DNA from: Bacilli bacterium | Lineage (GTDB): Bacteria > Bacillota_I > Bacilli_A > RFN20 > CAG-826 | Direction of reading: 5' to 3' | Assembly: GCA_017540455.1 (NCBI GenBank) | Contig: JAFYAZ010000039.1 | Location: forward strand, 5,587-69,586 | Length of the DNA: 64,000 bases | The notes under the pieces: generated by a model | The model's database searches: none | The model's input: the letters and a program-made list of their open reading frames with translations, nothing else | Told to the model about the DNA's origin: nothing | Part shown: piece after piece, positions 8,481-26,535 of the stretch | Numbering within the stretch: the stretch's first letter is position 1 | How the letters are laid out: the number at the start of each line of letters is the position of its first letter | Translations under genes and position numbers: made by a program

Positions 8481-8549
8481 AAAAAGCCCCCTACTACTTA
8501 AGTAAGGGGCTGATTCATGCAGGATTTGCTAGGGATTATTTGGCTTCGG
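8481..8549. repeat. 69-bp direct repeat, copy B (right boundary of island; functional 3' end and terminator of gene 8536..11613)
   Basis: See copy A. This copy includes the stop codon at 8536-8538 and the last four codons of the 1025-aa gene. Confidence 0.9.
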
Positions 8550-11500: not shown

Positions 11501-11613
11501 ATGCCAACGGCCGAAATGACGAATAAGCCAAGGAAGACGGCGCCGACCACTGTCGAAGCGCGGTTCTTAAGGAAGGCCTTAAGATTGACGAGTTTGGTTT
11601 TGTTCTTTTTCAT
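8536..11613 (-). CDS. membrane protein with degenerate GGDEF-like region(s), a Cys-rich sensor segment and a degenerate (probably non-catalytic) EAL domain; candidate c-di-GMP receptor
   Basis: 1025 aa with two N-terminal TM helices. The C-terminal EAL-fold is recognisable (LTQPIVD..., REFIPIA, LEGYLFGRPM). Its key motifs are substituted: EAL becomes SAL, ELTE becomes LEINS, DDFG becomes VDHTP, and EGVE becomes TGIE. There is no GGDEF/GGEEF signature. A CYKV..PCSHCP motif sits mid-protein. Confidence 0.6.
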   Translation of the reverse strand: MKKNKTKLVNLKAFLKNRASTVVGAVFLGLFVISAVGIPFAYYFENKILLWVSFGVLLISALTVAVTIIHLGLDYTRKGDKLAKDISSQIRSFADGNFLTINKDYDKVLPAFTEIQQQMNQAIADYSNYRLVYVGKASDEAINKDIEQGLVYDKETFTENLKKEVQKNDSYRSALLLISLEGAKTYEEKDFEALTAKVRETFPHSMLGKYDEKTLALYIFNVESFLGLETVCEGFVTNFNVLKIDKSTSVEKFVHAKIGGVIYPYCSLNNFLDEAEKALKEEGEVNLSYGVKDVYYPHRILSESSKRILFLANFEKWEYEIKHAKDYAGEIEALKNAIQWLMTQSDFEVAGVYEYGEKTRDYRLLFETARVEGNKGFSRFGSVLHLSFVGPFVNEAKKDTMFVGNARTDLPKELAEPILSLGMESFFIATLDSPNNDYGFIYMLSPNKRSGTSISSKEDFMTAVSFFSNMLIGNILAKRDDSLHDLLDNLASRTSRYLYSVDRPTHTITYMSDNLKHAFPGAHEGDICYKVLRTGHDKPCSHCPLRYGADHRVIPSIGPSESQISILQYRGANNDESTIMIERGTTQGLVAGSHLVDDSLLIKNAQALSIDVNRELKAKTARGYIVSCSLVDYEAALRELPQSDANSLMSSIVANFQDAGYGELLYRFDTYSISFLLKGYTKIKMMDFVEEAAEILSHPLEAREFRYNANYAFCAVAYPSEIVTTKQMVQTIKDELIRSERTYGPGYVVEVANRHPRKALRSEYILDILQATLDADALPILTQPIVDCGTLKVIGGDIRSALYGRDKLPIAPREFIPIANKEKLVSRVDIGAISMMGQLYSLYGSGIFKAVGIKCLSMYLSIDSLRDPEFPEKVKAILERNRFPREYMHLEINSAFFLDEEEAIKKVMSELTPLGVVFECVDHTPDKVPLEVLKSFGVHIIKTERSLIWNAATNENELANFSRFLDAAMRNDFDIYVTGIENAEQRDLAISLGAKGLEGYLFGRPMTEEDFVKVLNYGSKTTEAK

Positions 11614-11624
11614 GGCCTTTCTCC

Positions 11625-12356
11625 TTATTCGTTGACATCCTCAGTGCGGGCCACGAGGATTCGGGTGATGATCTTGCCGATTGTCGGCATCATCTCTAAG
11701 CCCGTGCGGATGTAGTTGATTCTTTCGCGTTCTTTGCCCATTTGCATCGCGACGCCTTTGATGGTCAAAAGGGCGGTGTTGTTAAGATGGCAAACCATCG
11801 CGATAGCGGCGCTTGTGTTGTCGTAAGCGCGCATGTTCTCTTCTTGGACGAGGAAGTGGTTTTGGACGATGGTTGAGACCTTATTCGGCATGAAATAGAA
11901 AGAGGAACCAGAAAGAAGGAAGCCTCTTTGGACGTATCTCGTCGTCATGAGATAAGCGTTCTTCTCAGCGCGGTCATTGATAAGGTTATCGGCGACGAAG
12001 AATGGGTCTCTTCCTGGGATTTGGCCATAGACGGCCTCTTTGTTATCGGTGAAATCGATGTCAGCGTAGAAATAACGGTCGGCGATGAATAAATCCCCTT
12101 GGCGGAGTTCGTCGCTGAAGCTATAGACCGAGCCGACATTGAAGACCATGTATGGGTCGAACTTCTCGATGATGAGGGTCATGATGATGCCGGCATCAAC
12201 AAGAGATGGTCCTGTCGCGGCAACGATGCAATCCTCACGGAAAATGCTGCCCTGATAGACTTTGAAGCCTCCGGTCAGGGTCACTTCTTTCGGATTCCCC
12301 ATCTTCGCTTTGAAATAGAGGATGTCGTCGCTAGTCGTACCGATTATGGCGATCAT
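11625..12356 (-). CDS. MTA/SAH nucleosidase (Pfs/MtnN, PNP_UDP_1 fold)-like protein, divergent
   Basis: 243 aa. It aligns by eye with E. coli MtnN: IAIIGTTSDD vs IGIIGAMEEE, YGQIPGRDPFFVAD vs YGQLPGCPAGFKAD, and SAAIAMVCH vs ATAIAHVCH. The region of the catalytic ISD(V) reads VAMQMG. Its start overlaps the stop of the upstream EAL gene (ATGA). Confidence 0.55.
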   Translation of the reverse strand: MIAIIGTTSDDILYFKAKMGNPKEVTLTGGFKVYQGSIFREDCIVAATGPSLVDAGIIMTLIIEKFDPYMVFNVGSVYSFSDELRQGDLFIADRYFYADIDFTDNKEAVYGQIPGRDPFFVADNLINDRAEKNAYLMTTRYVQRGFLLSGSSFYFMPNKVSTIVQNHFLVQEENMRAYDNTSAAIAMVCHLNNTALLTIKGVAMQMGKERERINYIRTGLEMMPTIGKIITRILVARTEDVNE

Positions 12357-13927
12357 TTGGCTACCTCCCCTGCTTTCTTCTTCTCGAATGGGTTATTGCT
12401 AAGGAATCTCTGGAATTCGAATTCGCCAAGCGGGCGGCTATAGTAATAGCCTTGGACGGCGTCGATGCCAAGTTCCTTGACGATGTTCTTCTGGATCTCG
12501 GTTTCCACGCCTTCGGCGATGGTCTTCATGCCTAAGGAATGTGAGATGTCATTGATGCAACGGACAAGGTCGCGGCTCTTCTGGTCAAGCTCAACCTCAT
12601 CGATGAAGGACTTATCGATCTTAAGGGTGTCGAAAGGAATCTTCTTTAAGGAAGAGAAAGCCGAATAGCCCATACCGAAGTCATCGATTGAGGTATCAAG
12701 GTCAAGGGCTTTGATCTTTCTGATCATGGCTGAGACGAAGACGGCGTCTTGAGCGGCCATGGATTCGGTGAGCTCAATCTCAATCCATTTAGGATTGATC
12801 TCGTATTTCTCCATCGTTTCCTTATAGAAAGAGAGGATATCTGGCGCAAGAGCGGTTTTTCTGGAAAGGTTGATGGAGACCTTAGGGATACGTTTTCCTT
12901 CGGCCTTCCACTTCTTCATGTTCTTGCAGACCTGCTCGAAGACGTATTTATCGACCTCGATGATACGGCCGGATTGCTCAGCGAACGGGATGAAGAGGGA
13001 TGGAGGGAGAAGACCACGGGATGGGTGGTTCCATCTGACAAGGGCTTCAGCGCCGAAGAAGGTTTCGTCATGAAGGTCGAATTTAGGCTGATAGAAGACT
13101 TGGAGCTGCTCTTCGTTGATGGCGTTGCCTAGTTCGCTAGAAAGGGAACGTTCGCCTTCATCATCCATCATGAATTCCTCGCTATAGACGATGACGTCGC
13201 TAGAGATACGGGATGAGAGGTTATAGGTGCCGGCGATTTGGGCTTTGCTATAGACGTCTTCGAAAGGCTGGCCATGATGGGCGTGATAGACGCCGCAAAG
13301 GATAGCGACATCAGGCATTGTGCCATCTTTCTCGAGGAGATAATTGACTCTTTGGCAGATGGACTGGAGCTCTTCGATGAAAAGGGATTCCTCCCCTCCT
13401 TTTTTGATGAGGATCCAACCCTTGGTTGGGGAGAAACCATAAGCGTAGTTCTTATTGTCTTTGCCAACCGCCTCATGTATCGCGGCATATAAAGCGTCGT
13501 TGATGATACGCGGTCCTTTTTGGCCATAGATGCTACGGAGTCGGGCGATGTTTCTGACATCGAGGACGGCAAAGAGGGATTCCGCTTTCCTTCTAAGCAT
13601 CATGTAGCGATAGTTCTGCTTCAAAGCAGATTCATTGAAGATATAGATCTCCTTCGTGAAGTTGTCTTTGGCGATATCTCTATCTATCGCCGACATCGCA
13701 AGGACGTTCTGGTAGAGAAGGGAGACGACGATGAGAACGGCGTTGACGATGATGGTGACATAAAGGCTGACGATGAAACCAGGCTTGTAGTAGCCTCTGA
13801 TCATGATCGTGTAAAGGATGATTGAGGCGATGGTGTTGATGCCTAAAAGGAGATAGATGATATAGGCGTTCCTCTGGTGGGTCTTATAAGAGAAACGGGA
13901 AGCGAAAAAGTTAAGTAATCGTCTCAT
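12353..13927 (-). CDS. membrane-bound c-di-GMP phosphodiesterase (degenerate GGDEF + canonical EAL)
   Basis: 524 aa with two N-terminal TM helices. The GGDEF position reads GFSPT, so it is degenerate. The full EAL signature set is present: QPKF, EALVRW, SINLS, EIELTES, DDFGMGYS, KIDKSF, EGVET and QGYYYSRP. Its start overlaps the sipW-like stop. Confidence 0.8.
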   Translation of the reverse strand: MRRLLNFFASRFSYKTHQRNAYIIYLLLGINTIASIILYTIMIRGYYKPGFIVSLYVTIIVNAVLIVVSLLYQNVLAMSAIDRDIAKDNFTKEIYIFNESALKQNYRYMMLRRKAESLFAVLDVRNIARLRSIYGQKGPRIINDALYAAIHEAVGKDNKNYAYGFSPTKGWILIKKGGEESLFIEELQSICQRVNYLLEKDGTMPDVAILCGVYHAHHGQPFEDVYSKAQIAGTYNLSSRISSDVIVYSEEFMMDDEGERSLSSELGNAINEEQLQVFYQPKFDLHDETFFGAEALVRWNHPSRGLLPPSLFIPFAEQSGRIIEVDKYVFEQVCKNMKKWKAEGKRIPKVSINLSRKTALAPDILSFYKETMEKYEINPKWIEIELTESMAAQDAVFVSAMIRKIKALDLDTSIDDFGMGYSAFSSLKKIPFDTLKIDKSFIDEVELDQKSRDLVRCINDISHSLGMKTIAEGVETEIQKNIVKELGIDAVQGYYYSRPLGEFEFQRFLSNNPFEKKKAGEVAK

Positions 13928-14985
13928 TGCTTTTCTCCTTCCTTAGCGAATTCGGCTAAAATCTTAGCCTTCTCTTCTTGCTTTATCCTTTCAAGCTCCT
14001 CCGATTTGGCGAGTTCTTCTTTGGCTTTCTTGAATTCTTCGAGGAAGAGGGCCTTCTGCTCTTGCTTCATGGCTTCCATCTCTTTCTCGATCTCTTTTCT
14101 CATCTGGTATTTCTCTTTGAAGATGAGGACGGCTTTCTCGTCGGTTGGATCGATACCGGCGGCAAGCATCTCCGCTTTCATCTCGTCTTCCTCTTTCTTC
14201 TTCTCGACGCGGTATCCCTTGATGAAATCAACGACCGTCATGCCTCCGATGATGAGGATTGGGACGAGGATGGCGACTGGGACGAACCAGACGCTTTGGA
14301 CGGTATGGAGGACGCCTCCGAAGAAGTGGCTATGTGAGATGACGTTGCCAACGTAGTACTTCGATTGGACGGTGTCCCTATATGTTGATTCAACGGCTTT
14401 GCCGGTGACTTTGGTGTACCATTCGGCGTTGAGGTTGTCGCCGCAGGTGTAGAAAGTCATCTCGGATTTGCCACTCCAGTTAGGGATGATATGGGTGAGG
14501 GTGTGCTCTTTGTCTTCTTTTGAGCGGGTCTGGAAGGATTTGCCTTCTTCGAGCTCTACGGTTTCGCCACCAGTGAACCAGGTAATACCGCTATCGATGG
14601 TATATTCGAAGGCAGGAGAGACTTCGAAAGAGCCTTTTTCCCCTGCTTTTGCTGGGGATTCCACGATTTCGATGACACGGTGGGAGACGCAGTATCCGAT
14701 CGCGTCGCTATAGAAGGCGATGATCTCGCCGGCTTTTACATCGTTAACGTCTTTCTTCTGGATGACGACGCCTTCGCCCGCGTCAAAGGAATCAGGATTC
14801 TTCCCTTCCATTGAGTCGGTGAGGACTTCCATGAAGCTATAGCCGAAAAGAGATGGGATGCCATAGTTGTTGTTCTTGGTGATGAACATATCAATCTGAA
14901 GTCCCAAAATCAAAACGATGAGGGCACCGAGGATGATGTCCACGATCTTCGAGGCGATTTTTTTCTTCTTCTTTTGCTCTTCCAT
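13924..14985 (-). CDS. sipW: SipW-type (ER/archaeal-type, S26B) signal peptidase I with large insertions and a C-terminal TM + E/K-rich coiled-coil tail
   Basis: 353 aa. It has an N-terminal TM, the catalytic-Ser box VLTDSMEG (cf. SGSMEP), the His box SHRVIEI and the GDN box TCGDNLNAEW. A second TM (VWFVPVAILVPILIIGGMTVV) is followed by ~100 aa of KE-rich predicted coiled coil. It is about twice the length I recall for B. subtilis SipW. Confidence 0.7.
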   Translation of the reverse strand: MEEQKKKKKIASKIVDIILGALIVLILGLQIDMFITKNNNYGIPSLFGYSFMEVLTDSMEGKNPDSFDAGEGVVIQKKDVNDVKAGEIIAFYSDAIGYCVSHRVIEIVESPAKAGEKGSFEVSPAFEYTIDSGITWFTGGETVELEEGKSFQTRSKEDKEHTLTHIIPNWSGKSEMTFYTCGDNLNAEWYTKVTGKAVESTYRDTVQSKYYVGNVISHSHFFGGVLHTVQSVWFVPVAILVPILIIGGMTVVDFIKGYRVEKKKEEDEMKAEMLAAGIDPTDEKAVLIFKEKYQMRKEIEKEMEAMKQEQKALFLEEFKKAKEELAKSEELERIKQEEKAKILAEFAKEGEKQ

Positions 14986-14989
14986 CTAA

Positions 14990-17041
14990 CTATTTGGCTT
15001 TCTTGATGCGGAAAACTTTTTCTTTGCTCTCTGGCTTCTCTTCTTTGGCGTCTTTCTTCACCTTGATGAACTTCGGCGAAGCGGCTTTGTTTTGCTCAGC
15101 GTGAGGACTACCGACGAAGGTGATATGTCCGAATGGGTCGGTCTTGATTCCGCCGATATCGAGTGCGTACTTCGAATAACCCCTACGGACGCGGACCACG
15201 GTAGGCGTGATCTTCTCGATTTTTTTGCTTGGGGCGATGATGGTCACTGTCTTTCCTCTTTCTTCTTCGGAGCGTTTCTCTTTTTCGACTTCGGCAAGGC
15301 GGGCTTTGTTCTTCTCTTCTTCGGCGAGCCTTTCTTCAAGTTCGGCGATTCGTTTGGCTTGGGACTCGTTTTCCTTCTGGAGCGCCTCTAACTGTTCTTT
15401 GTCGGCGTTATATTGCTCGAGCGGAACGGTGAAGGTCTGTCCATCGGAGAGGGCTTCTTCGGAGGCTGTCTCAACTGGAGCAGACTCCCCTGCAGCTTCT
15501 TCAGCGAGTGGCTCTGGTCCTTCGACGATTGGAGCAGGTCTACCCTTGGCGAGCTCATCGGCGATCGATTCATCAAGAGGAGCGTCTTCTTGCGCCATAG
15601 CGAGGATTCTTTCGCGGGCTTCTTTGAGGAGTTCGTTTTCTCTCGCTAAACGGATCTCGGTCTCGATTCTGATTTTTTCTTCGAGCTCACGGAGTTTCTG
15701 GGCTTCTTCTTCTTGGCGTTTGGCTTCAGCCGCAGCGCGTTCTTCTTCGAGTTGCTTCTCTTCCGCTTTACGGCGTTCCATCTCGGCGATGATGGCTTCC
15801 TGATCCATGAAGTTTCTCTCTTCTTCGGCTTGTTCACGGAGCTCTTTGGCGGTGAGCATCTCGGCGGTCAGGTATTCGTTGTCGCTTTCTTTGAAGGCTT
15901 TGACCTCGTCTGGGGTCCAGGCGAAATCCTTCTCTTCTGGCTCTCTTTCTGGGGTGACAAGAAGGGATTCGTGCTCTGGGAACTGGTCGTAGCGGAACTT
16001 ATGGGAAAGGAAGGTCTCATCCTCAAGAGAAAGCATGACCTTTGGCTCAAAATGCTTGGTCATCGCTTTGGCGGATTCCTTCTCATCCTTGGTTTTGACT
16101 TTTCTGTTGTCGATGAGGTGGGTATGGAGGGTGGCCATTGAGGCAGCGGTTAACCCATAGACCTCATTGAAGTAGCTCTCATCGAATTCGCCCTTCTTCT
16201 CCTCAATATCGAAGGAGATGCCGAGTTTGGTGTATGAATCGATGAACTTCCAAAGGACCGCGACTTTGTGGTAGTCAGGGTTCTTTAAAAGGAGGTTGGT
16301 CATCTGGAGTGGTGAGTGGACACTTTTGGCGTCCTTCATCTCCTCCATGAATGGGGACTTGATATAGAAGTTGACGCGTTCGGAAAGGTTCTTGATACGG
16401 GCAAGGAGCATCTTGTTCTTCTCGTATTCGCCTTTATCGTCGGATTCGATGGAGATCTTGATGCGATTATCGACTTCGTAACGGACTCCATCGATCTCGG
16501 TCTTTGAGTGGATGAAAAGAACATCGGAGTTACGGGTCTCACCCTTATCCGAGATGAACTGGACACGTTTCTCAACGAAGAAAGTGAGTCGCTGGATGAG
16601 AGACATAAGAACGCGGTTCTCATAGATCTGCATATCGACGTCGGAGCCGATTGAGAGAATGCGTTCAGGGACGATCTGGCCTTGCTTGTTGAAGCCATGG
16701 ATATAACGGGTATGGGACGCTAGATGGCGGATGGAGGTTGAGTTGATACGCTTGGCCTGTCCTGCTAAGACGAGATCCTGCGTCTCCTTGATGAAGGTAC
16801 GAGGATGGGCGATGATGCGGTCGATCGCGTCAAAGCCGGTGTCGAGCTCGGTGACCCATTTGTCGTCGTAGGTCTTGTTTTCGTGGCGGTTCCTTTGGAA
16901 AACACTGTTCTCCCCGGTCTTCTTGATGGCCTCAACGAACGACTTGAAAGGAAGGCTTCCCTTCAAGAGGGAATCCATCTTCTTCATGTAGTCAGCATGA
17001 ACGCGCGTCAGTTTTGCGGTGTCTTTTTCCTTTTTGGCCAT
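14990..17041 (-). CDS. 683-aa coiled-coil protein, partner of the McrB-like ATPase (McrC-position; no nuclease motif seen)
   Basis: The N-terminal ~340-aa globular part contains ...DMQIYENRVLMSLIQRL..., reminiscent of the (T/P)ENR-hydrophobic motif of McrC/DUF2357 N-domains. Residues ~370-620 are an E/K/A-rich coiled coil. The C-terminus is basic. It lies immediately downstream of the McrB-like gene. Confidence 0.45.
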   Translation of the reverse strand: MAKKEKDTAKLTRVHADYMKKMDSLLKGSLPFKSFVEAIKKTGENSVFQRNRHENKTYDDKWVTELDTGFDAIDRIIAHPRTFIKETQDLVLAGQAKRINSTSIRHLASHTRYIHGFNKQGQIVPERILSIGSDVDMQIYENRVLMSLIQRLTFFVEKRVQFISDKGETRNSDVLFIHSKTEIDGVRYEVDNRIKISIESDDKGEYEKNKMLLARIKNLSERVNFYIKSPFMEEMKDAKSVHSPLQMTNLLLKNPDYHKVAVLWKFIDSYTKLGISFDIEEKKGEFDESYFNEVYGLTAASMATLHTHLIDNRKVKTKDEKESAKAMTKHFEPKVMLSLEDETFLSHKFRYDQFPEHESLLVTPEREPEEKDFAWTPDEVKAFKESDNEYLTAEMLTAKELREQAEEERNFMDQEAIIAEMERRKAEEKQLEEERAAAEAKRQEEEAQKLRELEEKIRIETEIRLARENELLKEARERILAMAQEDAPLDESIADELAKGRPAPIVEGPEPLAEEAAGESAPVETASEEALSDGQTFTVPLEQYNADKEQLEALQKENESQAKRIAELEERLAEEEKNKARLAEVEKEKRSEEERGKTVTIIAPSKKIEKITPTVVRVRRGYSKYALDIGGIKTDPFGHITFVGSPHAEQNKAASPKFIKVKKDAKEEKPESKEKVFRIKKAK

Positions 17042-17082
17042 GGTTTAAAAGAGTTTGCTCGGGGGTTTTTATAGGTTAAAGA

Positions 17083-18669
17083 TTAACCAACGTCCTTGAG
17101 GAAGCCGGCGATCTTGGCTTTGGACATCTTGAACTCGGCTTTGCCAAAGAGCTTGGTGAGCTTGGCATCGAGTTCGATTAAGTCATCGCGTAAGTGGGCG
17201 ATGTTAAGGGATTCGAATTTCTTTAAGATCTTCGTGGCGAAGATGTAGTCAACGCCTTCAAGTTCGGTTCCGCCGGTGGCGACGTAGCATGGGACGAAGG
17301 CATTGAGCTGCTTAAGAATACGGTTACCAAAGGCAAGCTTAAAGTGTTGGATGACAAAGTCATCGAGCTCAGTGAACTTCTCTAAGGTCTTTCCGGAGAT
17401 TGGGAAGTTGCTATTGGCTTCGGCATAAAGCTTCATTAAGTATTCGAATGGGAGAGGGAGACCCTCGGTGAATGGCGCTTCAAAGGCGATACCTTTGTTA
17501 TCGAAGAAGAGCGACATAGCACGGTCATAGACCTTATCGGTGATGGTGAAGGTCGAGTCATCGTTGTTCGCGGTGCCGATGAACCAGACGTTCTGAGGGA
17601 TGAGAAGCTTACCATCATGGAGGTGCTTAGGATCGTCTTTCTGCGGGGAAGAGATGAGGTCGATGTTCCAGGCCGATGGGTTAGGCATTTCCATGATGGA
17701 AAGGAATTCGGCGAAGTAGTACTCGATACGGGCGATGTTCATCTCATCGAGGACGATGAGGTTGATGTCCTCTCTGAAGGTGGATTCGTAGATGCTTCTT
17801 AAGAATTCGGTCTCGGTGAACTTCTTGGTGAAGTCGTTGTAGAAGCCTAAGAGCTCGGAACGGTCACGCCAGGAAGGCTGGACGGAGCAGATGGTGCAGT
17901 TGTTCTGGAAGAATTTCCCCAAAGCGTATGGCAAAGAGGTTTTACCTGTACCGGAAATACCTTCGAGAATGATGATCTTGCCGGTTCCCATGGAAGCGAA
18001 GAAAGCGCGCATGGCTGGGATGGTGTAATAGAGTTTGAGCTGGGAAGCGGCGTAGTTTCTGAATCTTTCGACGATTTCCTGAAGGGAGATGTCGGTTGCG
18101 TCTGCTGGAAGTTCGACATGGGTGGAAATCTCAGCGTATTTCTCGTCGACGGCGATAAGACGAGGGAATCTGACGTCTTTCTCGCCTGGGACCCCTCCTT
18201 CTTCCGTTTCTTCGGTTTCTTGAGCGTTAGAAGAGGTGGAAATCTCGCTAGAACCTCCGACAGAGATCGATTCGGATGGGGATAGGCCAAGGGAATCGAG
18301 CTGGAGGCCAAGGATTCTGTTCTTTTCTTGGGTGGCGTTATAGAGTTCGATCTGAAGGTTCTGGACTTCTTCGCGGAGTCTTTCGCGATCGATCTCGGTG
18401 CGGTAGAACTTGATGTATTTTCTAAGCAGCCAATAGATGAGGAAAACGAGTGCGCCTATCGCTGCGACGAAGAAAATGGCAAAGAGGACGAAGAAGAACC
18501 AGCCCCAGAAGCCAAAACCGCTGGCGAAATTGTCGAAAATGATTCCGTACTGGACGAAATCATCTGGGACATCGGCCCACGGGACGGCCCATCTCTGGTT
18601 CAGCCATCTGCCGAAATTGGATAATACGGCGACGACCATTTCACGAAGGTAATTGAAATAGTTTTCCAT
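17083..18669 (-). CDS. membrane-anchored McrB-family (AAA_5) AAA+ NTPase
   Basis: 528 aa. An N-terminal TM helix (FGFWGWFFFVLFAIFFVAAIGALVFLIYWLL) is followed by a short coiled coil and an acidic/Ser linker. The AAA+ core has Walker A LEGISGTGKTS and Walker B plus the McrB signature LIVLDEMNIARIEYYFAEFLSIME (cf. E. coli McrB FIIDEINRANLSKVFGEVMMLME). It also has IPQNVWFIGTANNDDS...VYDRA (cf. VPENVYIIGLMNTADRS). No DNA-binding N-domain was recognised. Confidence 0.7.
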   Translation of the reverse strand: MENYFNYLREMVVAVLSNFGRWLNQRWAVPWADVPDDFVQYGIIFDNFASGFGFWGWFFFVLFAIFFVAAIGALVFLIYWLLRKYIKFYRTEIDRERLREEVQNLQIELYNATQEKNRILGLQLDSLGLSPSESISVGGSSEISTSSNAQETEETEEGGVPGEKDVRFPRLIAVDEKYAEISTHVELPADATDISLQEIVERFRNYAASQLKLYYTIPAMRAFFASMGTGKIIILEGISGTGKTSLPYALGKFFQNNCTICSVQPSWRDRSELLGFYNDFTKKFTETEFLRSIYESTFREDINLIVLDEMNIARIEYYFAEFLSIMEMPNPSAWNIDLISSPQKDDPKHLHDGKLLIPQNVWFIGTANNDDSTFTITDKVYDRAMSLFFDNKGIAFEAPFTEGLPLPFEYLMKLYAEANSNFPISGKTLEKFTELDDFVIQHFKLAFGNRILKQLNAFVPCYVATGGTELEGVDYIFATKILKKFESLNIAHLRDDLIELDAKLTKLFGKAEFKMSKAKIAGFLKDVG

Positions 18670-18693
18670 TATTTCTCTCCTCTTTTGATGGTG

Positions 18694-19755
18694 TTAGTTG
18701 TTCGTTGGCGCCACGGTGCGGTGCTCACCCATAAAGGCGATATGCGCATTGAAGGCGGCGTTGATGAGGTCGTTGGAGCATTCTTTGTCCCAACCCTCAA
18801 GGTAGATGGTGATGACGAGTCTCTTGACCTCGTTTGGGGCGATGTAGGTCACCCACTTCTTCGTATGAAGAAGCTCGGAAAGGGAATAGGTCTCCTCTTC
18901 TTTGATCTTGAGGTTTCCTTCGCTGACCGATTTATCAAGGTTGAGATGCCTGATGCCGGCTTTCGTCTTGCCTCCGACACCTGGTTTGGCGTTGTCGTAT
19001 TCATGATGTTCGACATCATGGTCCACGGCGTCATCGTAAATCAAATTGGCGTCTTCATTATATTCCCCATACAATACTTCTTCAAAAGAAGAATTGTAAT
19101 CGATGTATCCGTCATAGAAGCTGACATCGAGGAGGCCGCCTAATTTGGTCTTGCTTCCAGTTTCGACATTCGGCTCATAAATGACATATCCATCTTCCGA
19201 GTAGAAGGACACGCGGATGGCGTCTTCAACAGAGTTGAGGGCTTCCACGCTGGTGCCGGTCTGGACAGCGGTGACCTCGTTGCGGGCGTTATTGGCTCTG
19301 ACGGAGGTGGTTGGGTCGAGATAGACATAGGTTCCAACGTCGCTAGTGAGGAAGATCTCCTGCTGGTAGAAGCCACTTGTGGCCTCGCCGGTCTCACGGT
19401 ATCCCCTGGCAGAAGGGTATTCGCTAGAGAGGGTCGGGAATCTGTCGTTAAGATAGACGCTGTTATCCTGGAACATCGAGCTCACTGGAGTGAGATAGAA
19501 TTCGCCGTCATTGGAGATGCTGTCCCCTGCTGCGAACTCGATCATGCCAAGCTCGTTTCTTTCACCGATGCGGATATCGTGGTTGGTTGCTTCAACGTGG
19601 ATGTTTCCGACGGTGAGGAAGTCAGAGACGCTGAACCAGGCGATCGTGGAGGTGACGAACGCGCTCAAAGTAAGCGAAAAAAGGGCTAAAGCAGCCCAAA
19701 GCAGGCTTTGTTGCCTGACGCCGATTTTTTTCACTCTACGTACGCGCGTAAACAA
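18694..19755 (-). CDS. exported TasA/camelysin-like protein (paralog 3) with SipW-class signal peptide
   Basis: 353 aa. The signal is ...LLWAALALFSLTLSAFVTSTIAWFSVSD (cf. TasA ..GGGTWAAFND, CalY ..GGGTFAYFSD). It shares AIRVSFYSED, YLDPTTS and the C-terminal VITIYLEGWDKEC strand with the other three paralogs. The TTG start lies unusually close to its GGGAGG, so the exact start is uncertain. Confidence 0.6.
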   Translation of the reverse strand: MFTRVRRVKKIGVRQQSLLWAALALFSLTLSAFVTSTIAWFSVSDFLTVGNIHVEATNHDIRIGERNELGMIEFAAGDSISNDGEFYLTPVSSMFQDNSVYLNDRFPTLSSEYPSARGYRETGEATSGFYQQEIFLTSDVGTYVYLDPTTSVRANNARNEVTAVQTGTSVEALNSVEDAIRVSFYSEDGYVIYEPNVETGSKTKLGGLLDVSFYDGYIDYNSSFEEVLYGEYNEDANLIYDDAVDHDVEHHEYDNAKPGVGGKTKAGIRHLNLDKSVSEGNLKIKEEETYSLSELLHTKKWVTYIAPNEVKRLVITIYLEGWDKECSNDLINAAFNAHIAFMGEHRTVAPTNN

Positions 19756-19768
19756 AATCCTCCCTTAC

Positions 19769-20797
19769 TTACTCTGAAATTTCTTCAGAAGCGTTTAACA
19801 CGCTTCCGGTCGACTCGTCTCTTGCCCAGGACTGGGTGAGGTTTTCGCTCGTGAAGTGCATCGACATCGTCAAAGCGGAACCCACAGGGTTCTCACCCAC
19901 ACAGTCGGCGTCGAAGCCTTCGAGCCAGATGACGACGGTGAAGCGTCGGATCTCACGAGGCATGAGATAGGTCTCATTCTTCATGACGATCATCGCTAAC
20001 GGATCACTTCCGTCGTCGTTAAGGAAATTCGTGCAATATCCTTTGTTCTCTTCTCTTTTCGCCGTGTATCCGTTGGTGGTCTCAGTGGTTCCGGTGATGA
20101 GCTCATTGTTCGAGGCGTTGGTCGAGAATGACTTCGCTCTGCGTGCGTATGTGCCCACCATCTCGTGCTTGAGTTCATTCTCGTCGAAGTGAGAGTCATA
20201 GACTCTGACCCTGACGATGTCCTCAATCGAACAGCTGGCATCAACGTTGGATGGTTCGGTGATGGAGGAGAAATCGATGTAGTAGTTTGCTTTTGCCATT
20301 TCGCTTGGCGAGGAGTTCCTTAAGTAGAATGTGTACTTGAAAGAATAGTCTTGGGTGTTCTCGACATCGGTCGGAGCGTTCTTGCGGCTTCCGAGGATGA
20401 CGGATTCATCGGCGACATCGGCATCGACGAAGTCCTCTTCGAGGAGATCGTCCGCGCACATCGGCGTGGTGCACTCATAACCGCCTGCCATCAGGTAAGT
20501 GGTTCTGTTTTTAAGATCGGTGCCTGAGGTGCTTGATGTGAGCGAATCACCGATCGAGAGCTCGTTTCTGACTTGCTCAAGTTTGACGGTGAATGAACCG
20601 AAGTTACGGCCTAAAAGGGCGATGATGATGAGAACGGTGAGAACGCTGATGGACACGCCTAAAATGATGGCGGCGATACGCCTTCTGCGTCTGCGCTTAA
20701 GAAAATCAGGCTCTCTTGGCTCGATCAACTTGACCGCAGAGTCGCTGCCATTATCTAAAGTAACTGTCTCAACAGGCTCTATTTGTTCCAAAACCAT
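19769..20797 (-). CDS. membrane-anchored TasA-like paralog (paralog 4); first gene of the riboswitch-controlled operon
   Basis: 342 aa. A ~40-aa cytoplasmic N-tail ending RRRRRR is followed by a TM (IAAIILGVSISVLTVLIIIALLG). The ectodomain has IVRVRVYDSH and VVIWLEGFDADC motifs shared with the paralogs. A GGAGG RBS lies 2 nt upstream of ATG 20797. Confidence 0.55.
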   Translation of the reverse strand: MVLEQIEPVETVTLDNGSDSAVKLIEPREPDFLKRRRRRRIAAIILGVSISVLTVLIIIALLGRNFGSFTVKLEQVRNELSIGDSLTSSTSGTDLKNRTTYLMAGGYECTTPMCADDLLEEDFVDADVADESVILGSRKNAPTDVENTQDYSFKYTFYLRNSSPSEMAKANYYIDFSSITEPSNVDASCSIEDIVRVRVYDSHFDENELKHEMVGTYARRAKSFSTNASNNELITGTTETTNGYTAKREENKGYCTNFLNDDGSDPLAMIVMKNETYLMPREIRRFTVVIWLEGFDADCVGENPVGSALTMSMHFTSENLTQSWARDESTGSVLNASEEISE

Positions 20798-20879
20798 AAC
20801 CTCCTTGAAAAAGGCTCTTAGCTTTGTTTGTTCAAAGCAAAACCAAAGGTTTTATGTAAGAGTATTTTAGTTCAATGAT

Positions 20880-20935
20880 GGCGAAAGAAAAACGGCGCTA
20901 CTTCTCTCTGCGCCGCCGGGACGAGGCTTTCGCCT
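20880..20935 (-). terminator. intrinsic terminator = expression platform of the c-di-GMP riboswitch
   Basis: The minus-strand RNA is CGGCGC-agagagaagua-GCGCCG followed by UUUUUCUUU (stem at + 20893-20898 / 20910-20915). It is enclosed by an outer pairing GGCGAAAG/CUUUCGCC (+ 20928-20935 / 20880-20887). It lies ~85 nt upstream of the first start codon. Confidence 0.7.
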
Positions 20936-20997
20936 ACCATCAGAATCACTTTTGTTCCAGGGCACAAGCAGAAGATTCTGGATATTCACGCTCATCG

Positions 20998-21110
20998 ACC
21001 CAGTTGCCCACTGAATCTAGAGTACTGAACTCCAGGCAACTGGCTACCACGCATATATTGCGAGGCCCTGTAGCTTTGCGTCGCCATGTTTCCATGGGTT
21101 TGCTATACAC
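20998..21110 (-). promoter_or_regulatory. c-di-GMP-I (GEMM-I) riboswitch aptamer
   Basis: The minus-strand RNA is GCGUGUAUAGCAAACC-CAUG-GAAA-CAUG-GCGACGCAAAGCUACAGGGCCUCGCAAUAUAUGCGUGGUAGCCAGUUGCC. It contains GCAAACC, a GAAA-capped stem, the near-invariant GACGCAAAGC, the second helix GCUAC...GUAGC and a trailing CAGUUGCC. This matches my memory of Vc2 and Bacillus GEMM-I sequences. Confidence 0.8.
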
Positions 21111-21114
21111 GCAT

Positions 21115-21143
21115 ATAATAGGTAAGGATTTTTACGTTGTCAA
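21115..21143 (-). promoter_or_regulatory. SigA-type promoter driving the riboswitch and operon
   Basis: The minus strand reads TTGACA (+21143-21138), a 17-nt spacer, then TATTAT (+21120-21115). The predicted TSS is a few nt before the aptamer. Confidence 0.7.
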
Positions 21144-21620
21144 GAGGGACGCACTCACTTTTTTTACAATCCTGAAAGCGTTTTCAAATTCTTTAGACAA
21201 TTTATAGTCATGCGCATCCTTATATTTATATACATACGCGCAAGAAGAGGGTCTTCTGGATCTGAGACCGGTGGTTTTGTAAAGATGAACCCCTACTTCT
21301 AGCTGGTTTTGGATTCAGATTTGACTGTTTTGAGAATTTCGTTCTTGAATTGTAAAGTTTTCTATGTTGTGAAAAGTCCACTGCCAATCGAGTATTTTAA
21401 ACTTTCTTAAAAATTGTTGAGTGTATTGCACTTGCAAAGATTCCAATCGTTATCTAAACTTATGGTGTCCTCAAAAAGGGCTCAAAAACAACTTGCCCGT
21501 TGTTCCTTCGAGAGGATGGTCGGACGATCACTCCGACGGTAAAGAAAGAAATCCATCAGAACCCAGACAATTGAAGCTGGGCTTTTCTGCTTATAAGCTT
21601 CAAGGAAGGAAATTACGATT

Positions 21621-22721
21621 ATGACCAATAGATCAAAAATGATTCTCGGCTTAGCCTCACTCCTCGGCGTCACCGCTGGTGCCACTGCTGTTTCCGGCTT
21701 TGCCTGGTTCGTTACCACCAAGACTGCTGATGTCAGCGTCACCAACATTAAAGTCTTCAATGACAACCCATCCCTCTCTGTCAGACTCGAGAACTTAGAA
21801 GGTGTCAAGCTCACTAATGATGCTGCAAACAACTTCGCCCTCAAGGCTGCCAAAGATACAACCAGCGTCGACGAAGAGTGGACTGCTGCTGCTGACCAAA
21901 CAGACTTCGTTCTCCCAACTAAACCACTTGCCGCTCCAACCGTTACTATTGACGGTGTGGTCGACACCACGCTTCATTCCTATGATGCTGCTAATAAGAC
22001 GATTCACTTCGATGCTGCTCCTGGTGCCGGCAAGAAAATCCGTGCTACCTACTATGACAAAGCTGCCTTAACCGACGTCAGCTCCTTGAATGGTAAGGAT
22101 TTCTATGATCCTACCTGGGAAACCGCCAACGAAGGTAAGAAAGCTACCTTAATTGATGACGCGGTTGCGGGCGAGCAGTACATCGCCTTCGATATGGTCT
22201 TCAGCGCTCCAACCACCGGAAGCCTCAAGGTCTATCTCAGCCAACCTTCAATCGAGGGCATCGACGAAACGAACAATACTGCTGACGCTGCTGCCGCTTC
22301 TGTTGCCCGTGTTGGTTTCTACAACGAAGATACCCACGCGAGTGTCCTTACTCTTTCTAGAAACATCGGCGACCATTACAACAAAGGCATCAGCAAAACC
22401 AAAGTTGAAAGTTACGATACCGGTAGCGGCACCGTCAATGCAAACACCGTCGACGGCCACTACACCATCGATCCAAACGTTCTTGACACCTGCACCACTC
22501 TTGCCACCCCATGTGCCACCGACTACAGCGTCATGAGCTCAGCTCCAACTTCAGGAACCGACCTTTCTAACAACTTCATCGCTCTTATCGACGGCTCAGA
22601 CGTTAGACTTCACGTCACCATTTGGCTTGAAGGAACCTCTAACACCACTGATGGAGACTACAGCGCTCCTATCGGCGGAGAAATCAACGTCACCCTCCCA
22701 ATTGTCGCCTTTGGCGCCTAA
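21621..22721 (+). CDS. exported TasA/camelysin-like fibre-subunit candidate (paralog 1), SipW-class signal peptide
   Basis: 366 aa with an AAGGAAGGA RBS. The signal is MTNRSKMILGLASLLGVTAGATAVSGFAWFVTTK. It is Thr/Ala/Asp-rich with only two Cys in the mature part. The C-terminal strand HVTIWLEGTSNT resembles the TasA C-terminal ..LQFSFEATQ. It shares LTDVSS.NG..FY.P.W, LKVYL..PSI and ARVGFYNED with paralog 2. Confidence 0.65.
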   Translation: MTNRSKMILGLASLLGVTAGATAVSGFAWFVTTKTADVSVTNIKVFNDNPSLSVRLENLEGVKLTNDAANNFALKAAKDTTSVDEEWTAAADQTDFVLPTKPLAAPTVTIDGVVDTTLHSYDAANKTIHFDAAPGAGKKIRATYYDKAALTDVSSLNGKDFYDPTWETANEGKKATLIDDAVAGEQYIAFDMVFSAPTTGSLKVYLSQPSIEGIDETNNTADAAAASVARVGFYNEDTHASVLTLSRNIGDHYNKGISKTKVESYDTGSGTVNANTVDGHYTIDPNVLDTCTTLATPCATDYSVMSSAPTSGTDLSNNFIALIDGSDVRLHVTIWLEGTSNTTDGDYSAPIGGEINVTLPIVAFGA

Positions 22722-22772
22722 TCGAGATCGATCACTCGACTTCTCAATTTCTTAATTAAGGAGAAAACAAAA

Positions 22773-23879
22773 ATGACAAAAAAATCAAAGATGATTCTTG
22801 GCCTCGCTTCCATGCTTGGCGTCTCAGCCGGTGCTGCCGCTGTTAGCGGCTTCGCCTGGTTCACCACCACCAAAAAAGCCACCGTTGATGTCACTAACAT
22901 CGGCGTCTACAGCAAGAGCAGCAACCTCAACGTTCAATACACCGCCGCTGTTAAAGGATGTATCGACGATCCTAACGATGCCTCAAGTGTTGGCGATATT
23001 AATATCATGGCTAGCGCAGAAAAGACCCAAAACTTCACTGGCGACGGAACCACCACTTCGTTCACCCTTGACTTAGAACCTTATGCAGCTCCAACCGCTA
23101 CCGTCGATGGGAATACCACTGCCGTCACTTGGACATCCGGAAAAACCATCTCATTCGCATCCGCACCTGGCAACGGCCTCCCTATCGTCGTTACCTACAA
23201 GACTCATTCAGTCTTAACAGACGTTTCTTCTGTCGATGGACAAAAGTTCTACAAACCAGTTTGGACTGCCGGAAACGAAGGCTTATATGCCACTTCAATC
23301 TTGTCTTCTGCTCTCCCGACACCAACCCTTACCGAAGGTTGGCTCTCCTTCACAATGACTCTTACCGCAAATGGTAGCAGCCCACTTAAAGTATTCCTCA
23401 ATACCCCAAGCATCACGGCCGCTACTGGTGCTACCACAGAACAACAGGACGCAAATGATGCCGCTGCGGAGATCGCCCGTGTCGCGCTTATCGAAGATGA
23501 AACCCACTATTTGGTTTTACAAAATACTAGCGTCGCTACGAACAATCTTGGCATCAACCAAACTTATGTCAACGACAACAGCTTAAAGACTAATGGCTTG
23601 TACGATTTGTCAAAACTTGCTGAAGAAGTTGATGAAGACCATTTCGCAATTCCTAACGCTTCCGACAAGAGCAATCTATCTGATGCTCCAGCGGAGAACG
23701 CTACGCAGAACTACGTTACTACTGTCCCAGCCGGCGCATCTAAAGTTATCACCGTCGCCATTTGGCTCGAAGGAACAAGCCACATCACCGCTTATACCGC
23801 TCCTTCTGGCGGTGGCAGCTATTCTGCCGATCCAGCAAACGGTATCTTCAGTGTGGCTCTCCCACTCATCGCCTTCTAA
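22773..23879 (+). CDS. exported TasA/camelysin-like fibre-subunit candidate (paralog 2), SipW-class signal peptide
   Basis: 368 aa with an AAGGAG RBS. The signal is MTKKSKMILGLASMLGVSAGAAAVSGFAWFTTTK. The C-terminal strand is ITVAIWLEGTSHIT and the C-terminus is ..LPLIAF (paralog 1 ends ..LPIVAFGA). It sits in tandem, 51 nt after paralog 1. Confidence 0.65.
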   Translation: MTKKSKMILGLASMLGVSAGAAAVSGFAWFTTTKKATVDVTNIGVYSKSSNLNVQYTAAVKGCIDDPNDASSVGDINIMASAEKTQNFTGDGTTTSFTLDLEPYAAPTATVDGNTTAVTWTSGKTISFASAPGNGLPIVVTYKTHSVLTDVSSVDGQKFYKPVWTAGNEGLYATSILSSALPTPTLTEGWLSFTMTLTANGSSPLKVFLNTPSITAATGATTEQQDANDAAAEIARVALIEDETHYLVLQNTSVATNNLGINQTYVNDNSLKTNGLYDLSKLAEEVDEDHFAIPNASDKSNLSDAPAENATQNYVTTVPAGASKVITVAIWLEGTSHITAYTAPSGGGSYSADPANGIFSVALPLIAF

Positions 23880-23899
23880 TCAACATCACTAACGATTTA

Positions 23900-23926
23900 G
23901 CCTTCCCTCACGGGAGGGCTTTTTCT
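23900..23926 (+). terminator. intrinsic terminator after the tandem TasA-like genes
   Basis: The hairpin is GCCTTCCC-tcac-GGGAGGGC (8 bp including one G-U) followed by TTTTTCTT. Confidence 0.7.
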
Positions 23927-24161: not shown

Positions 24162-24545
24162 CTATTTCTCTTCCTCGGATTTCTTGGATTGGTTCCTGAT
24201 CTCCGCGAGAGCTTCTTCTCTAGCCTGTCTCTTGGCTTCTTCGAGAAGGTCGTTCTTCTCTTGATCGCTGAGCATCGATTCTCTCTTGGTCGCGTACATG
24301 ATGAGGTAAACACCATCAACGACGAAGATAAGGAAGAGAGGGAGAACAATCGTGCAAGCGAAGAGGATTGAGTTGTTCTGAAGGGTGCCGATGAATGGAC
24401 CGTTGAGATCAAGGTTCTTCTGCTGGTTCGCATTAGGATCGATCGTGACCATGACCCAGATCGAGACGATGAGACAGAAGATAATCACACACACCTCGAT
24501 TGCGGCGATGATGATAAGAGCTTTTTTGCTGAGAGGTTTATTCAT
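24162..24545 (-). CDS. small membrane protein, hypothetical
   Basis: The ORF 24162..24569 is trimmed to ATG 24545 (MNKPLSKK...), which has AAGGAA 6 nt upstream. It has two TM helices and a charged C-tail. The terminator AACCGG...CCGGTT plus a U-run lies at about 24117-24141. Confidence 0.55.
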   Translation of the reverse strand: MNKPLSKKALIIIAAIEVCVIIFCLIVSIWVMVTIDPNANQQKNLDLNGPFIGTLQNNSILFACTIVLPLFLIFVVDGVYLIMYATKRESMLSDQEKNDLLEEAKRQAREEALAEIRNQSKKSEEEK

Positions 24546-24708
24546 AAAACATTCCTTAAATCGACCCAAAAGGTCGGTGAATGGGCTTTTTTATAAGTTA
24601 ATACTAGACCATATGTATTAAAATCGCAAATATTTACGCATCTGAGCATATCATTAGGCTTATTTGGACACTCTACATATAATGGTGGTGTTCCTTAGGG
24701 ATGACGAT

Positions 24709-25406: not shown

Positions 25407-26402
25407 TCAGAGATACACACAATCGCAACCCTCTGGCACAACAAGATGGGAGTTTCCCTCTTCGTCGAGATAGTACTCATCGCACACAAAGTCCATCACC
25501 CTTTTAATAGGGAGCAAGTAGAAAACCGTTTTTTCCGGCACATAGTATTTGAAGTCATAATCGTACTTGTCATCAAGGTCGAATAGATTCGTGCCAGTTC
25601 TTGTTCTTTCATAGACGAAACGATATTGATTGGTGAAGTATAGGGCGAATGTGCCACGATAATGGAACTGGTAGTATTTTCTATGGTCGCTCTCGTTCTT
25701 TAACGTGACGCTCTTTTGCTCTTCAGCGTAGGAAACTTCCGTTCCTGCTACCCATTTCAGATCGCTGTAGAGACCATTTGACACCACAGTGGAAGATTCG
25801 GGTCCAGCTACGCCCCATGTTTTAAAATCCGCAAGGCTGTTGCCGGTACCGAGGCTGATGCCAAGCCTTTCGAATTCTGATTCTGCGATTTTATTGACGC
25901 GGTCAATCACGTCAGCGGTGTTCTCGGTTGAAACGGGCCTACTAGGCACCGTTAAAGTGACTGTGGTGTCGCTATTTGGAGGCAAGCTAAGGATGCTGCT
26001 ATCTTCCACAGGAAGGCTGACATACTTCGCGAATTTGTATGTAAAGGTCTTTTTGTCGGTGAGCCATTCGGTGAGTGGTTCCTGCCAATACACCCAGTTG
26101 GAAAGGTAGGTTACGCGTTCCTTGTCATAATGAGCCGTTTCAACGCTTATGACGTCGCCGAAAATCTCATTGGTCGAACGCGCAAATTCAATGAGCGAGT
26201 TGCCTTTTCCGACGATATCGAAATCATTGCAGACGTCATCGGCATAGATGACGTTAGGTCCGTCCACAAACGGAGCGGATGGATCATAATAATCCGAATC
26301 CTCTATTAGAGACCGAGACTCAGGAGCTGTGCACGAAGCAAGGGAAATGAGCGCAATAACGTTGATTATCTTTTTGGCTAAACGATTCTTTTTGGCTTTC
26401 AT
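25407..26402 (-). CDS. lipoprotein, hypothetical
   Basis: The track ORF is trimmed to ATG 26402 (MKAKKNRLAKKIINVIALISLASC), with AAAGGGG upstream. Lipobox is LASC. I recognised no family. Confidence 0.6.
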   Translation of the reverse strand: MKAKKNRLAKKIINVIALISLASCTAPESRSLIEDSDYYDPSAPFVDGPNVIYADDVCNDFDIVGKGNSLIEFARSTNEIFGDVISVETAHYDKERVTYLSNWVYWQEPLTEWLTDKKTFTYKFAKYVSLPVEDSSILSLPPNSDTTVTLTVPSRPVSTENTADVIDRVNKIAESEFERLGISLGTGNSLADFKTWGVAGPESSTVVSNGLYSDLKWVAGTEVSYAEEQKSVTLKNESDHRKYYQFHYRGTFALYFTNQYRFVYERTRTGTNLFDLDDKYDYDFKYYVPEKTVFYLLPIKRVMDFVCDEYYLDEEGNSHLVVPEGCDCVYL

Positions 26403-26535
26403 ACGATTACCCCTTTCGCAAACGGTGAGATTATAGAATTTTTCGCGCGAAATAATCAAGCCGTTTAATAGGCTTTTTTTCGAGTTTGATTGTTTGCGGT
26501 ATCAAATAAAAAATACCCTGCAAAACCAAGGTATT

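Follow-up and report, generated by a model that had tools for sequence, protein, structure and literature searches.

The closest described relative of the locus reported here is CoCoPALM, which was named by Bell et al. (eLife 2024, PMC11090510) in a few sentences, with its analysis deferred to a later paper. It is placed there among the 'CoCoNuT-like' Type IV restriction relatives and comprises an McrB homolog with an FtsB-like transmembrane segment and coiled coil, a coiled-coil McrC homolog and an associated signal peptidase, for which pilus assembly is proposed; the CoCoNuT/CoCoPALM clade is marked by a shortened NxD signature, usually with D or E as the next residue (PMC11090510). The text of that paper mentions neither TasA nor cyclic di-GMP (c-di-GMP), riboswitches or EAL genes, a search of its supplements found no mention of CoCoPALM, and our literature search returned no CoCoPALM follow-up and no paper tying SipW to a c-di-GMP riboswitch. 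The window analysed here is a stretch of 64,000 nucleotides (nt) from a Bacilli bacterium (GenBank assembly GCA_017540455.1, contig JAFYAZ010000039.1), in which a minus-strand operon encodes two exported or membrane-anchored beta-rich proteins (pB and pA), an McrB-like AAA+ protein, an McrC-like partner, a SipW-type signal peptidase and EAL-domain proteins, with two further exported proteins (pC and pD) encoded divergently. We favour, with some reserve, the reading that this locus is a CoCoPALM-type surface-structure system under c-di-GMP control, most likely building a fibre or pilus and not serving defence. The first-pass annotation of the window held that no such locus had been described, which is wrong because the association had already been named CoCoPALM.

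The window fits four of the five features of CoCoPALM. Common to both are an McrB-type predicted GTPase with an N-terminal transmembrane segment and charged helix, an adjacent McrC (DUF2357) homolog with coiled-coil-like helices, and a tight association with the signal peptidase family, in abundance and within Bacillota; the distinction between NxD and NxxD is ambiguous, and the FtsB homology was not reproduced by Pfam. Compared with the literature, the apparently new features are the riboswitch and EAL wiring and the substrate family with an A-W-F motif together with the membrane-anchored pB class, all of which are absent from the paper, and in addition the cross-order synteny and the cultured carriers.

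The locus also resembles the tapA-sipW-tasA operon of Bacillus subtilis, calY of Bacillus cereus and sipW-bsaA of Clostridium perfringens, where a SipW-type peptidase is encoded beside exported beta-rich proteins, the signal peptides end in a G-T-x-A-x-F-like motif, and one anchor-like protein accompanies the major subunit(s). The output of those loci is of a biofilm or adhesion type, and the same type is predicted here. The window proteins differ from TasA and Peptidase_M73 in having no detectable sequence match or significant fold match to them, in being larger (340-370 amino acids (aa)) and in carrying an IWLEG motif; the window SipW is set apart by an insert and by a long tail on the cytoplasmic side, and control is by a riboswitch whereas tasA-type loci use SinR/Spo0A-type regulation. 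We know of no tapA-sipW-tasA, calY or sipW-bsaA locus with an McrBC-like GTPase pair inside the operon. Archaeal donor-strand filaments, namely AbpA of the Pyrobaculum bundling pili, Saci_0406 of the Sulfolobus threads and the haloarchaeal Tat-fimbriae, combine a beta-sandwich, archaeal/SipW-type processing and N-terminal strand donation, but the Foldseek matches of pA to such filaments are not significant (E 0.39-0.44), the host domain differs, and a nucleoside triphosphatase is not known from those archaeal systems. With McrBC and CoCoNuT systems the window pair shares the Walker B DExN...F.E...E layout of the AAA+ core, the N-x-(x)-D signature and a DUF2357 partner encoded directly downstream, whereas it lacks a DNA-binding domain as well as a PD-(D/E)xK or HEPN nuclease, its predicted GTPase is membrane-anchored, and the pair lies inside a core-chromosome operon for secretion and c-di-GMP signalling.

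Gene order and conservation of the operon

The genes and control elements, with coordinates numbered on the whole window and gene calls based on the open reading frame (ORF) list, are as follows.

21115-21143, minus strand: sigma-70-type promoter, TTGACA-17 nt-TATTAT, 11 of 12 consensus positions
21032-21114, minus strand: c-di-GMP-I riboswitch aptamer (RF01051), scoring 56.5 bits in Rfam, gathering threshold 35
20884-20917, minus strand: terminator-like hairpin, candidate expression platform, GGCGGCGC...GCGCCG plus a U run
19769-20797, minus strand: pB, first gene of the operon
18694-19755, minus strand: pA, exported beta-rich protein, second gene of the operon
17083-18669, minus strand: McrB-like AAA+ protein, 528 aa, predicted GTPase
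14990-17041, minus strand: McrC-like partner, 683 aa (ORF list)
13924-14985, minus strand: SipW/archaeal-type signal peptidase I, 353 aa (ORF list)
12353-13927, minus strand: EAL1, predicted EAL-domain c-di-GMP phosphodiesterase with two transmembrane segments (Pfam EAL 1.8e-65)
11625-12356, minus strand: PNP_UDP_1, phosphorylase-superfamily, nucleosidase-like gene (family match 3.8e-16)
8536-11613, minus strand: EAL2, 1025 aa, two transmembrane segments, C-terminal EAL domain (Pfam EAL 7.3e-26)
21621-22721, plus strand: pC, exported paralog, divergent from the minus-strand operon
22773-23879, plus strand: pD, exported paralog of pC, identical to NCBI protein IKQ78_04410

The seven gene coordinates given earlier match the ORF list exactly. 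From pB to the peptidase gene the intergenic gaps are 4 to 41 nt (ORF list), and the start of EAL1 overlaps the stop of sipW by 4 nt, which places EAL1 in the sipW operon; the PNP_UDP_1 gene and EAL1 likewise share 4 nt. The operon probably extends down to 8536 with EAL2 as its last co-directional gene, giving the transcription order pB, pA, McrB-like, McrC-like, SipW, EAL1, nucleosidase-like and EAL2. The PNP_UDP_1 gene at 11625-12356 stands between EAL1 and EAL2. Judging by the ~700 nt that separate the EAL1-type from the EAL2-type gene in many related loci, it appears to be conserved there.

When one genome per species was scanned, relatives of the McrB-like protein turned up in at least 567 genomes. 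The best 80 of these at least 567 loci were inspected by searching their ORFs with phmmer and family hidden Markov models (HMMs), and the denominators given below are the loci long enough to judge. The 80 loci came from metagenome-assembled genomes (MAGs) of RF39-like Bacilli (Enteromonas, Enterosoma), from Acholeplasma and Paracholeplasma, and from Ruminococcaceae and other Clostridia, and over them the identity of the McrB-like protein declines gradually from 94% to 47%. The partner gene follows the McrB-like gene directly in 74/74 loci, a SipW-like gene lies no more than 1.5 kilobases (kb) after the partner in 62/62, and a pA-, pB-, pC- or pD-type gene is found on the same strand within 2.5 kb upstream of the McrB-like gene in 63/63. 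In 40 of 55 loci the 3.5 kb downstream of the partner contain an EAL gene, EAL2 is conserved in 44 of the 80, and a second SipW copy stands directly upstream of the McrB-like gene in 15. The carriers include two cultured organisms, Paracholeplasma vituli and Hominimerdicola aceti. The operon is real and far from a chance arrangement, widely conserved in gut and rumen Firmicutes, chromosomal and vertically conserved, and since all three linkages hold in every locus judged, the McrB-like/McrC-like pair is integral to it. Co-occurrence of the pair with sipW and the paralogs, a test set in the first-pass annotation, is borne out by the same counts, which strongly oppose the alternative offered there, that a defence gene pair merely hitch-hikes in the operon. 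That candidate was rejected on synteny, on the absence of a nuclease in 39 homologs and on the window flanks, which hold housekeeping genes (DnaE, PolA, RnfC and a UvrD-like helicase) and no defence island.

Bacilli-type operon contigs at loci L004, L005, L021, L038, L041 and L064 are deposited under non-Bacilli-type names, and the deposit names include Hallerella sp., Escherichia coli, Lachnospiraceae bacterium, Paludibacteraceae bacterium and Bacteroides uniformis ('cleanbin' assemblies). These names look like binning or naming errors because the McrB-like proteins have 51-64% identity and the synteny is identical to that of Bacilli MAGs.

The McrBC-derived pair and the signal peptidase

The McrB-like protein begins with a hydrophobic anchor (aa 48-85), which a short charged helix and a linker connect to the AAA+ core. 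The core motifs are GISGTGKTS (Walker A), LDEMN (Walker B) and GTANNDDST (signature), and their columns are invariant in the family. The protein matched E. coli McrB chains in the PDB with E=0.0018-0.0039 in a segment (aa 300-390) that spans Walker B and the signature, and the McrB-type PADLOC profile PDC-M26A with 8.5e-38 over aa 204-340, which is part of the core only; AAA_5 was matched by 27 of 28 family members. Together with the transmembrane segment, these matches uphold its earlier description as a membrane-anchored McrB-like AAA+ protein, and it is probably a GTPase. The residues N368-N369-D370-D371 are invariant and can be read as NxD followed by D, yet ANNDDS aligns without a gap to the NTAD of E. 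coli (NxxD). The Pfam DivIC/FtsB model was matched by 1 of 28 homologs, with E=0.034.

The partner contains a DUF2357-like domain (~aa 60-300), E/K-rich helices (~400-490 and 545-595) and a small basic C-terminal region. The window protein has no direct Pfam match and no transmembrane helix, the latter suggesting that it is cytoplasmic. It aligned to its Paracholeplasma vituli ortholog over the first 300 residues (9.9e-39), and this ortholog matches DUF2357 above the gathering score (3.6e-11). Across the partner family DUF2357, and no other domain, was found in 17 of 39 members (best 2.4e-12), to which the window protein links with 1e-29 to 1e-45. The family profile searched against PDB sequences gave low-complexity charged-helix matches only and no McrC. 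The protein first annotated as a coiled-coil protein in the McrC position is thus an McrC relative, but it is not coiled coil throughout. No nuclease domain, PD-(D/E)xK included, was detected in the 39 partner homologs at E≤0.01. Judged by sequence, the pair derives from McrBC but lacks the nuclease, and a predicted membrane anchor takes the place of the DNA-binding domain. The median partner length is 660 aa and the maximum 2331 aa, with long ones at L020:4599-11594, L061:9017-15760 and L010:6556-11346; the variation lies in the helical region, which is spacer-like, and the N-terminal DUF2357-like domain is constant.

Descent from McrBC raises the question of defence in a second form, namely an McrBC-derived membrane anti-phage or conflict system in which the GTPase pair would sense or block foreign nucleic acid or a phage at the envelope and the secreted proteins and the peptidase would act as effectors or decoys, so that the likeness to CoCoNuT would extend from ancestry to function. 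Such a system would be in keeping with the McrB family membership of the predicted GTPase, with its match to PDC-M26A, a PADLOC 'phage defence candidate', with the grouping of CoCoPALM among Type IV restriction relatives (PMC11090510), and with an immunoglobulin-like (Ig-like) insert in pC and pD that resembles phage tail Ig domains. However, the PADLOC match is partial and the only one in the locus, the 39 partner homologs contain neither a nuclease nor any other effector domain, and the DNA-binding N-domain of McrB is replaced by a membrane anchor. RF39-like Bacilli, Acholeplasma and Ruminococcaceae moreover share one fixed gene order while identity falls off gradually, the flanks are housekeeping genes, and a c-di-GMP riboswitch with EAL genes is typical of adhesion or biofilm outputs. 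We consider a defence function very unlikely.

In the signal peptidase the catalytic boxes are recognisable, with Ser58 in TDSME, His102 in SHRV and a GDN box, between an N-terminal transmembrane segment and a C-terminal one at 225-243. S58-M59, H102-R103 and G182 (the GDN-box glycine) are invariant across eight family members, including some that pass the TIGR02228 model; orthologs at L068 (95.3 and 80.2 bits) and L062 (52.7 and 60.3 bits) pass it. A cytoplasmic E/K-rich tail of ~100 aa follows in the window protein, and every aligned family member has such a tail. These features support its assignment as a SipW/archaeal-type signal peptidase I with the catalytic Ser and His kept, so that the predicted SipW-type peptidase of the operon stands, its NCBIfam SipW match of 3.6e-14 being below the cut-off.

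The exported proteins pA to pD

Sec-type signal peptides ending in (G/S)(T/G)-x-A-W-F are found on three of the four proteins (pA, pC and pD), and pB has a transmembrane anchor instead. The A-W-F motif accordingly occurs, as annotated, in pA (TIAWF), pC (GFAWF) and pD (GFAWF) and is absent from pB, the signal peptide ending S-T-I-A-W-F in pA and ...VSGFAWF in pC. In related loci A-W-[FY] is found in 131 of 159 pA-type ORFs and in 17/17 pC/pD-type ORFs, usually in the form (G/S/A)(S/T)-x-A-W-(F/Y). The pB-type proteins, of which there are 55-58 ORFs across related loci, have A-W-F in 0 of 56 full-length ORFs and share a basic tail, a transmembrane helix and a G-x-F-x-V strand; in pB itself a basic N-terminal tail precedes a single transmembrane helix (aa 39-57), the G-x-F-x-V strand and a beta-rich ectodomain. 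A second motif, I/V-x-I/V-(W/Y)-L-E-G, is shared by the four proteins without exception (IWLEGT in pC, IYLEGW in pA, IWLEG in pB). It had been described as a C-terminal strand; its invariance is confirmed, but it lies 30-45 residues before the C terminus and is not terminal.

The four proteins were initially called paralogs. The identity between pC and pD is 39%, and that between pA and pB 23%. By hhalign, pA and pB are related with 97.5% probability over the C-terminal 48 columns, pA and pC/pD with 97% over the N-terminal 57 columns (signal peptide, A-W-F and next strand), and pB and pC/pD with 77% over the C-terminal module around h-x-h-(W/Y)-L-E-G. The shared terminal modules exceed chance, but no similarity beyond them links the two pairs, and as far as the sequences go the paralogy between pA/pB and pC/pD is confined to these modules. 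One to several pA-type copies stand in tandem before the McrB-like gene in related loci, and the pB-type gene is single. A pA profile search returned 1582 clusters at 50% identity (E≤1e-3), the matches listed being strong ones (E ~1e-52 or lower), and no Pfam or NCBIfam model matches pA. We infer that pA is the major secreted subunit and pB a membrane-anchored base or nucleator subunit.

The proteins pC and pD contain an inserted Ig-like domain, at about aa 85-145 of pD, which pA and pB do not have. With Foldseek it matches the phage tail Ig domains 8es4_F, 8hqo_P and 7y22_e at a probability of 1.0 across 64-72 residues, and among 60 pC/pD relatives weak matches were found to DUF2460 in 14 and to fn3_5 in 6.

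These proteins could alternatively form a surface coat or adhesin set, in which pA-pD are monomeric or layer-forming and released or matured by SipW while the GTPase pair is no assembly motor but works in envelope or division-site organisation or as a signalling switch. Many carriers belong to Acholeplasma-like or RF39-like lineages with reduced or absent cell walls, where a coat would be anchored directly in the membrane. The middle regions of the paralogs are highly variable and, with their Ig-like inserts, adhesin-like; pB remains membrane-anchored; and the paralog models have no significant match to known fibre subunits. The N-terminus of the predicted GTPase, a transmembrane segment plus coiled coil, is also like FtsB/FtsL, one source naming a homolog FtsL and the CoCoPALM report giving FtsB homology (PMC11090510), but DivIC/FtsB was detected only weakly and in 1 of 28 homologs. 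What speaks for strand exchange instead is that the conserved parts of the paralogs are the post-cleavage N-terminal strand and the C-terminal strand motif, and that tandem pA-type genes with a single pB-type gene would suit a division into major, minor and anchor subunits. A coat is in our judgement unlikely, though less so than defence.

Two further features belong to the surroundings of these genes.

23899-23920, plus strand: intrinsic terminator closing the pC-pD unit, 9-bp stem with 6 GC pairs, T run
24162-24569, minus strand: small protein with two transmembrane segments, 135 aa, E/K-rich tail, own terminator at 24139-24119

The small protein has no Pfam family in the Pfam scan and matches the SipW-family HMM (2e-08), apparently via the part comprising the transmembrane segment and tail and not via the protease part. 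Many related loci have a counterpart a short way 5' of pB, and the protein may be an accessory component of the system. Just outside the system, a minus-strand gene at 25407-26459 encodes a protein of 350 aa with a lipoprotein-like N-terminus (…LISLASC) and without a Pfam family.

Predicted control by c-di-GMP and the proposed surface structure

The aptamer covers model positions 1-87 of 87 and lies 234 nt upstream of pB on the same strand; the promoter ends one base 5' of it, and the predicted transcription start is the first aptamer base. From the position and strand of promoter and aptamer it follows that the riboswitch leads the minus-strand operon only. The first-pass annotation had put the whole system under a c-di-GMP riboswitch, and the element itself is sound at 56.5 bits, but its control does not extend to pC and pD. 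A search of the divergent region 5' of pC/pD for a second regulatory RNA gave, at E≤1, a meaningless RgsA match and nothing else. The terminator-like hairpin of the leader was missed by a simple terminator scan because its loop is 11 nt. In ViennaRNA folds the 3' strand of the aptamer, CCAGUUGCC, is able to pair with GGCAACUGG ~25 nt downstream. Of 14 related loci tested, 10 have a c-di-GMP-I riboswitch 5' of the operon, in 9 directly before the pB-type gene; it was not detected in the Ruminococcaceae loci L068 and L074 nor in L057 and L037. A tandem pair of c-di-GMP-I and c-di-GMP-I-GGC aptamers is present at L059:2003-2223, ~2.6 kb upstream of pB, and a second aptamer elsewhere in the neighbourhood was seen at L015:16726-16800 and at L025:2847-2925 on the minus strand.

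The CoCoPALM-type surface-structure reading can be put as a sequence of steps. Binding of c-di-GMP to the leader would set read-through of the leader terminator. pB would insert in the membrane as an anchor, and the precursors pA, pC and pD would be exported by Sec, pC and pD being transcribed separately. SipW would then cleave at the conserved Ala of A-W-F, as TasA is cleaved at GTWA/AF, and the freed N-terminal strand (x-V-x-V-T-N-I-x-V) would enter the beta-sandwich of the neighbouring subunit, the polymer growing from membrane-anchored pB with pC and pD as additional Ig-decorated subunits. At the cytoplasmic face, a ring of the McrB-like protein with the McrC-like activator might be tied via charged helices to the E/K tail of SipW, and GTP hydrolysis might serve to organise, gate or anchor assembly. 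Feedback on c-di-GMP would come from the EAL phosphodiesterases encoded in the same transcript. The strand donation and the GTPase roles are less likely than the overall surface-structure reading. It is a tentative extension of it that CoCoPALM would be the first machine driven by nucleoside triphosphates (NTPs) for SipW-dependent strand-exchange fibres, with an exapted McrBC GTPase, stripped of its nuclease and equipped with a membrane anchor, that organises, gates, anchors or retracts a c-di-GMP-induced adhesive fibre.

Several observations weigh against this account. The fibre, the processing and the GTPase activity are predictions for every member, and the sample is the 80 closest of at least 567 loci. 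The terminator hairpin is retained in both the free and the aptamer-constrained ViennaRNA folds, which fits an OFF as well as an ON response to c-di-GMP. The window peptidase scores 52.7 bits (3.6e-14) with the NCBIfam SipW model NF046067, whose cut-off is 190, and 40.5 bits (2.4e-10) with TIGR02228, whose cut-off is 51.85, and an insert of ~65 aa (aa 113-175) separates its His box from the GDN box. For pA-pD no TasA, camelysin or Peptidase_M73 match was found in Pfam or NCBIfam, nor any in PADLOC; no TasA/Peptidase_M73 profile match was found among 60 pC/pD relatives; the pC/pD family profile returned nothing relevant from PDB sequences; and hhalign of three family profiles with the TasA sequence gave probabilities of ≤1%. 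Foldseek searches of the PDB with AlphaFold2 models of pD and pA gave no match at E≤0.001; below that threshold, the pD model matched the TasA fibre 8aur (E=0.041, target-normalised template-modelling (TM) score 0.30) and the pA model matched AbpA 7ueg (E=0.39, 0.32) and Saci_0406 7pnb (E=0.44, 0.37). The N-terminal peptides of pA, pC and pD gave no match to TIGR04088, a signal-peptide model of 34 positions with a cut-off of 19 bits on which the TasA control scores 42.1 bits. Finally, to our knowledge TasA-type and archaeal donor-strand fibres need no nucleoside triphosphatase, and the role of the GTPase here is therefore conjecture.

In the case of the peptidase, the curated SipW models align to no more than the N-terminal 110 aa because of the insert, which is lineage-specific and absent from the Acholeplasma and Ruminococcaceae orthologs. 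The structural models are beta-rich, with mean confidence (pLDDT) of 87 for pD and 79 for pA, and the N-terminal signal and first strand are poorly placed; the pD model is a beta-sandwich with the Ig-like insert, and its 46 N-terminal residues are of low confidence. A search of BFVD with the pA model likewise gave no match at E≤0.001. Among the weak Foldseek matches, which are otherwise unrelated, the full-length ones with the highest target-normalised TM-scores are the donor-strand subunits 8aur, 7ueg and 7pnb, and these model-based matches may serve as a lead and not as a fold assignment. A direct family assignment of pA-pD was dropped, as Pfam, NCBIfam and PADLOC were all without a match, and their TasA-type fold is unproven; the TasA/Peptidase_M73 jelly-roll expected for the four proteins found no profile match and no significant Foldseek match for the pD or pA model, and the expected TIGR04088-type signal peptides are unmatched by the window proteins. 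Relatives at L014 and L003 score 14.1 and 8.9 bits with TIGR04088, below 19, and one signal peptide weakly matches TafE (E=0.058). The TasA cleavage site GTWA/AF was confirmed on a TasA sequence identical to 8aur and 5of1, the mature chain of 8aur starting at A28. The A-W-F layout is like this site, the likeness of (G/S)T-x-A-W-F to G-T-x-A-x-F being by eye only.

The familiar roles of McrBC-family GTPases are those of motors in restriction and defence, and a nuclease-less, membrane-anchored McrBC pair in a secretion operon would be a clear example of a defence motor recruited to cell-surface biogenesis. Assembly of TasA-type and archaeal strand-exchange fibres is generally regarded as needing no energy source. 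The scale is considerable, with at least 567 species-level genomes and more than 1500 clusters of pA-type proteins without a Pfam or NCBIfam model, and the organisms that carry a CoCoPALM-type operon are abundant and almost unstudied. The riboswitch and in-operon EAL wiring in several small-genome gut and rumen Bacilli makes the operon a likely major adhesion or biofilm output. The cultured carriers Paracholeplasma vituli and Hominimerdicola aceti make these hypotheses testable. If an NTP-driven fibre is indeed built, the uncultured RF39-like and Acholeplasma-like Bacilli of gut and rumen, and some Clostridia, could have in it their main organelle of attachment.

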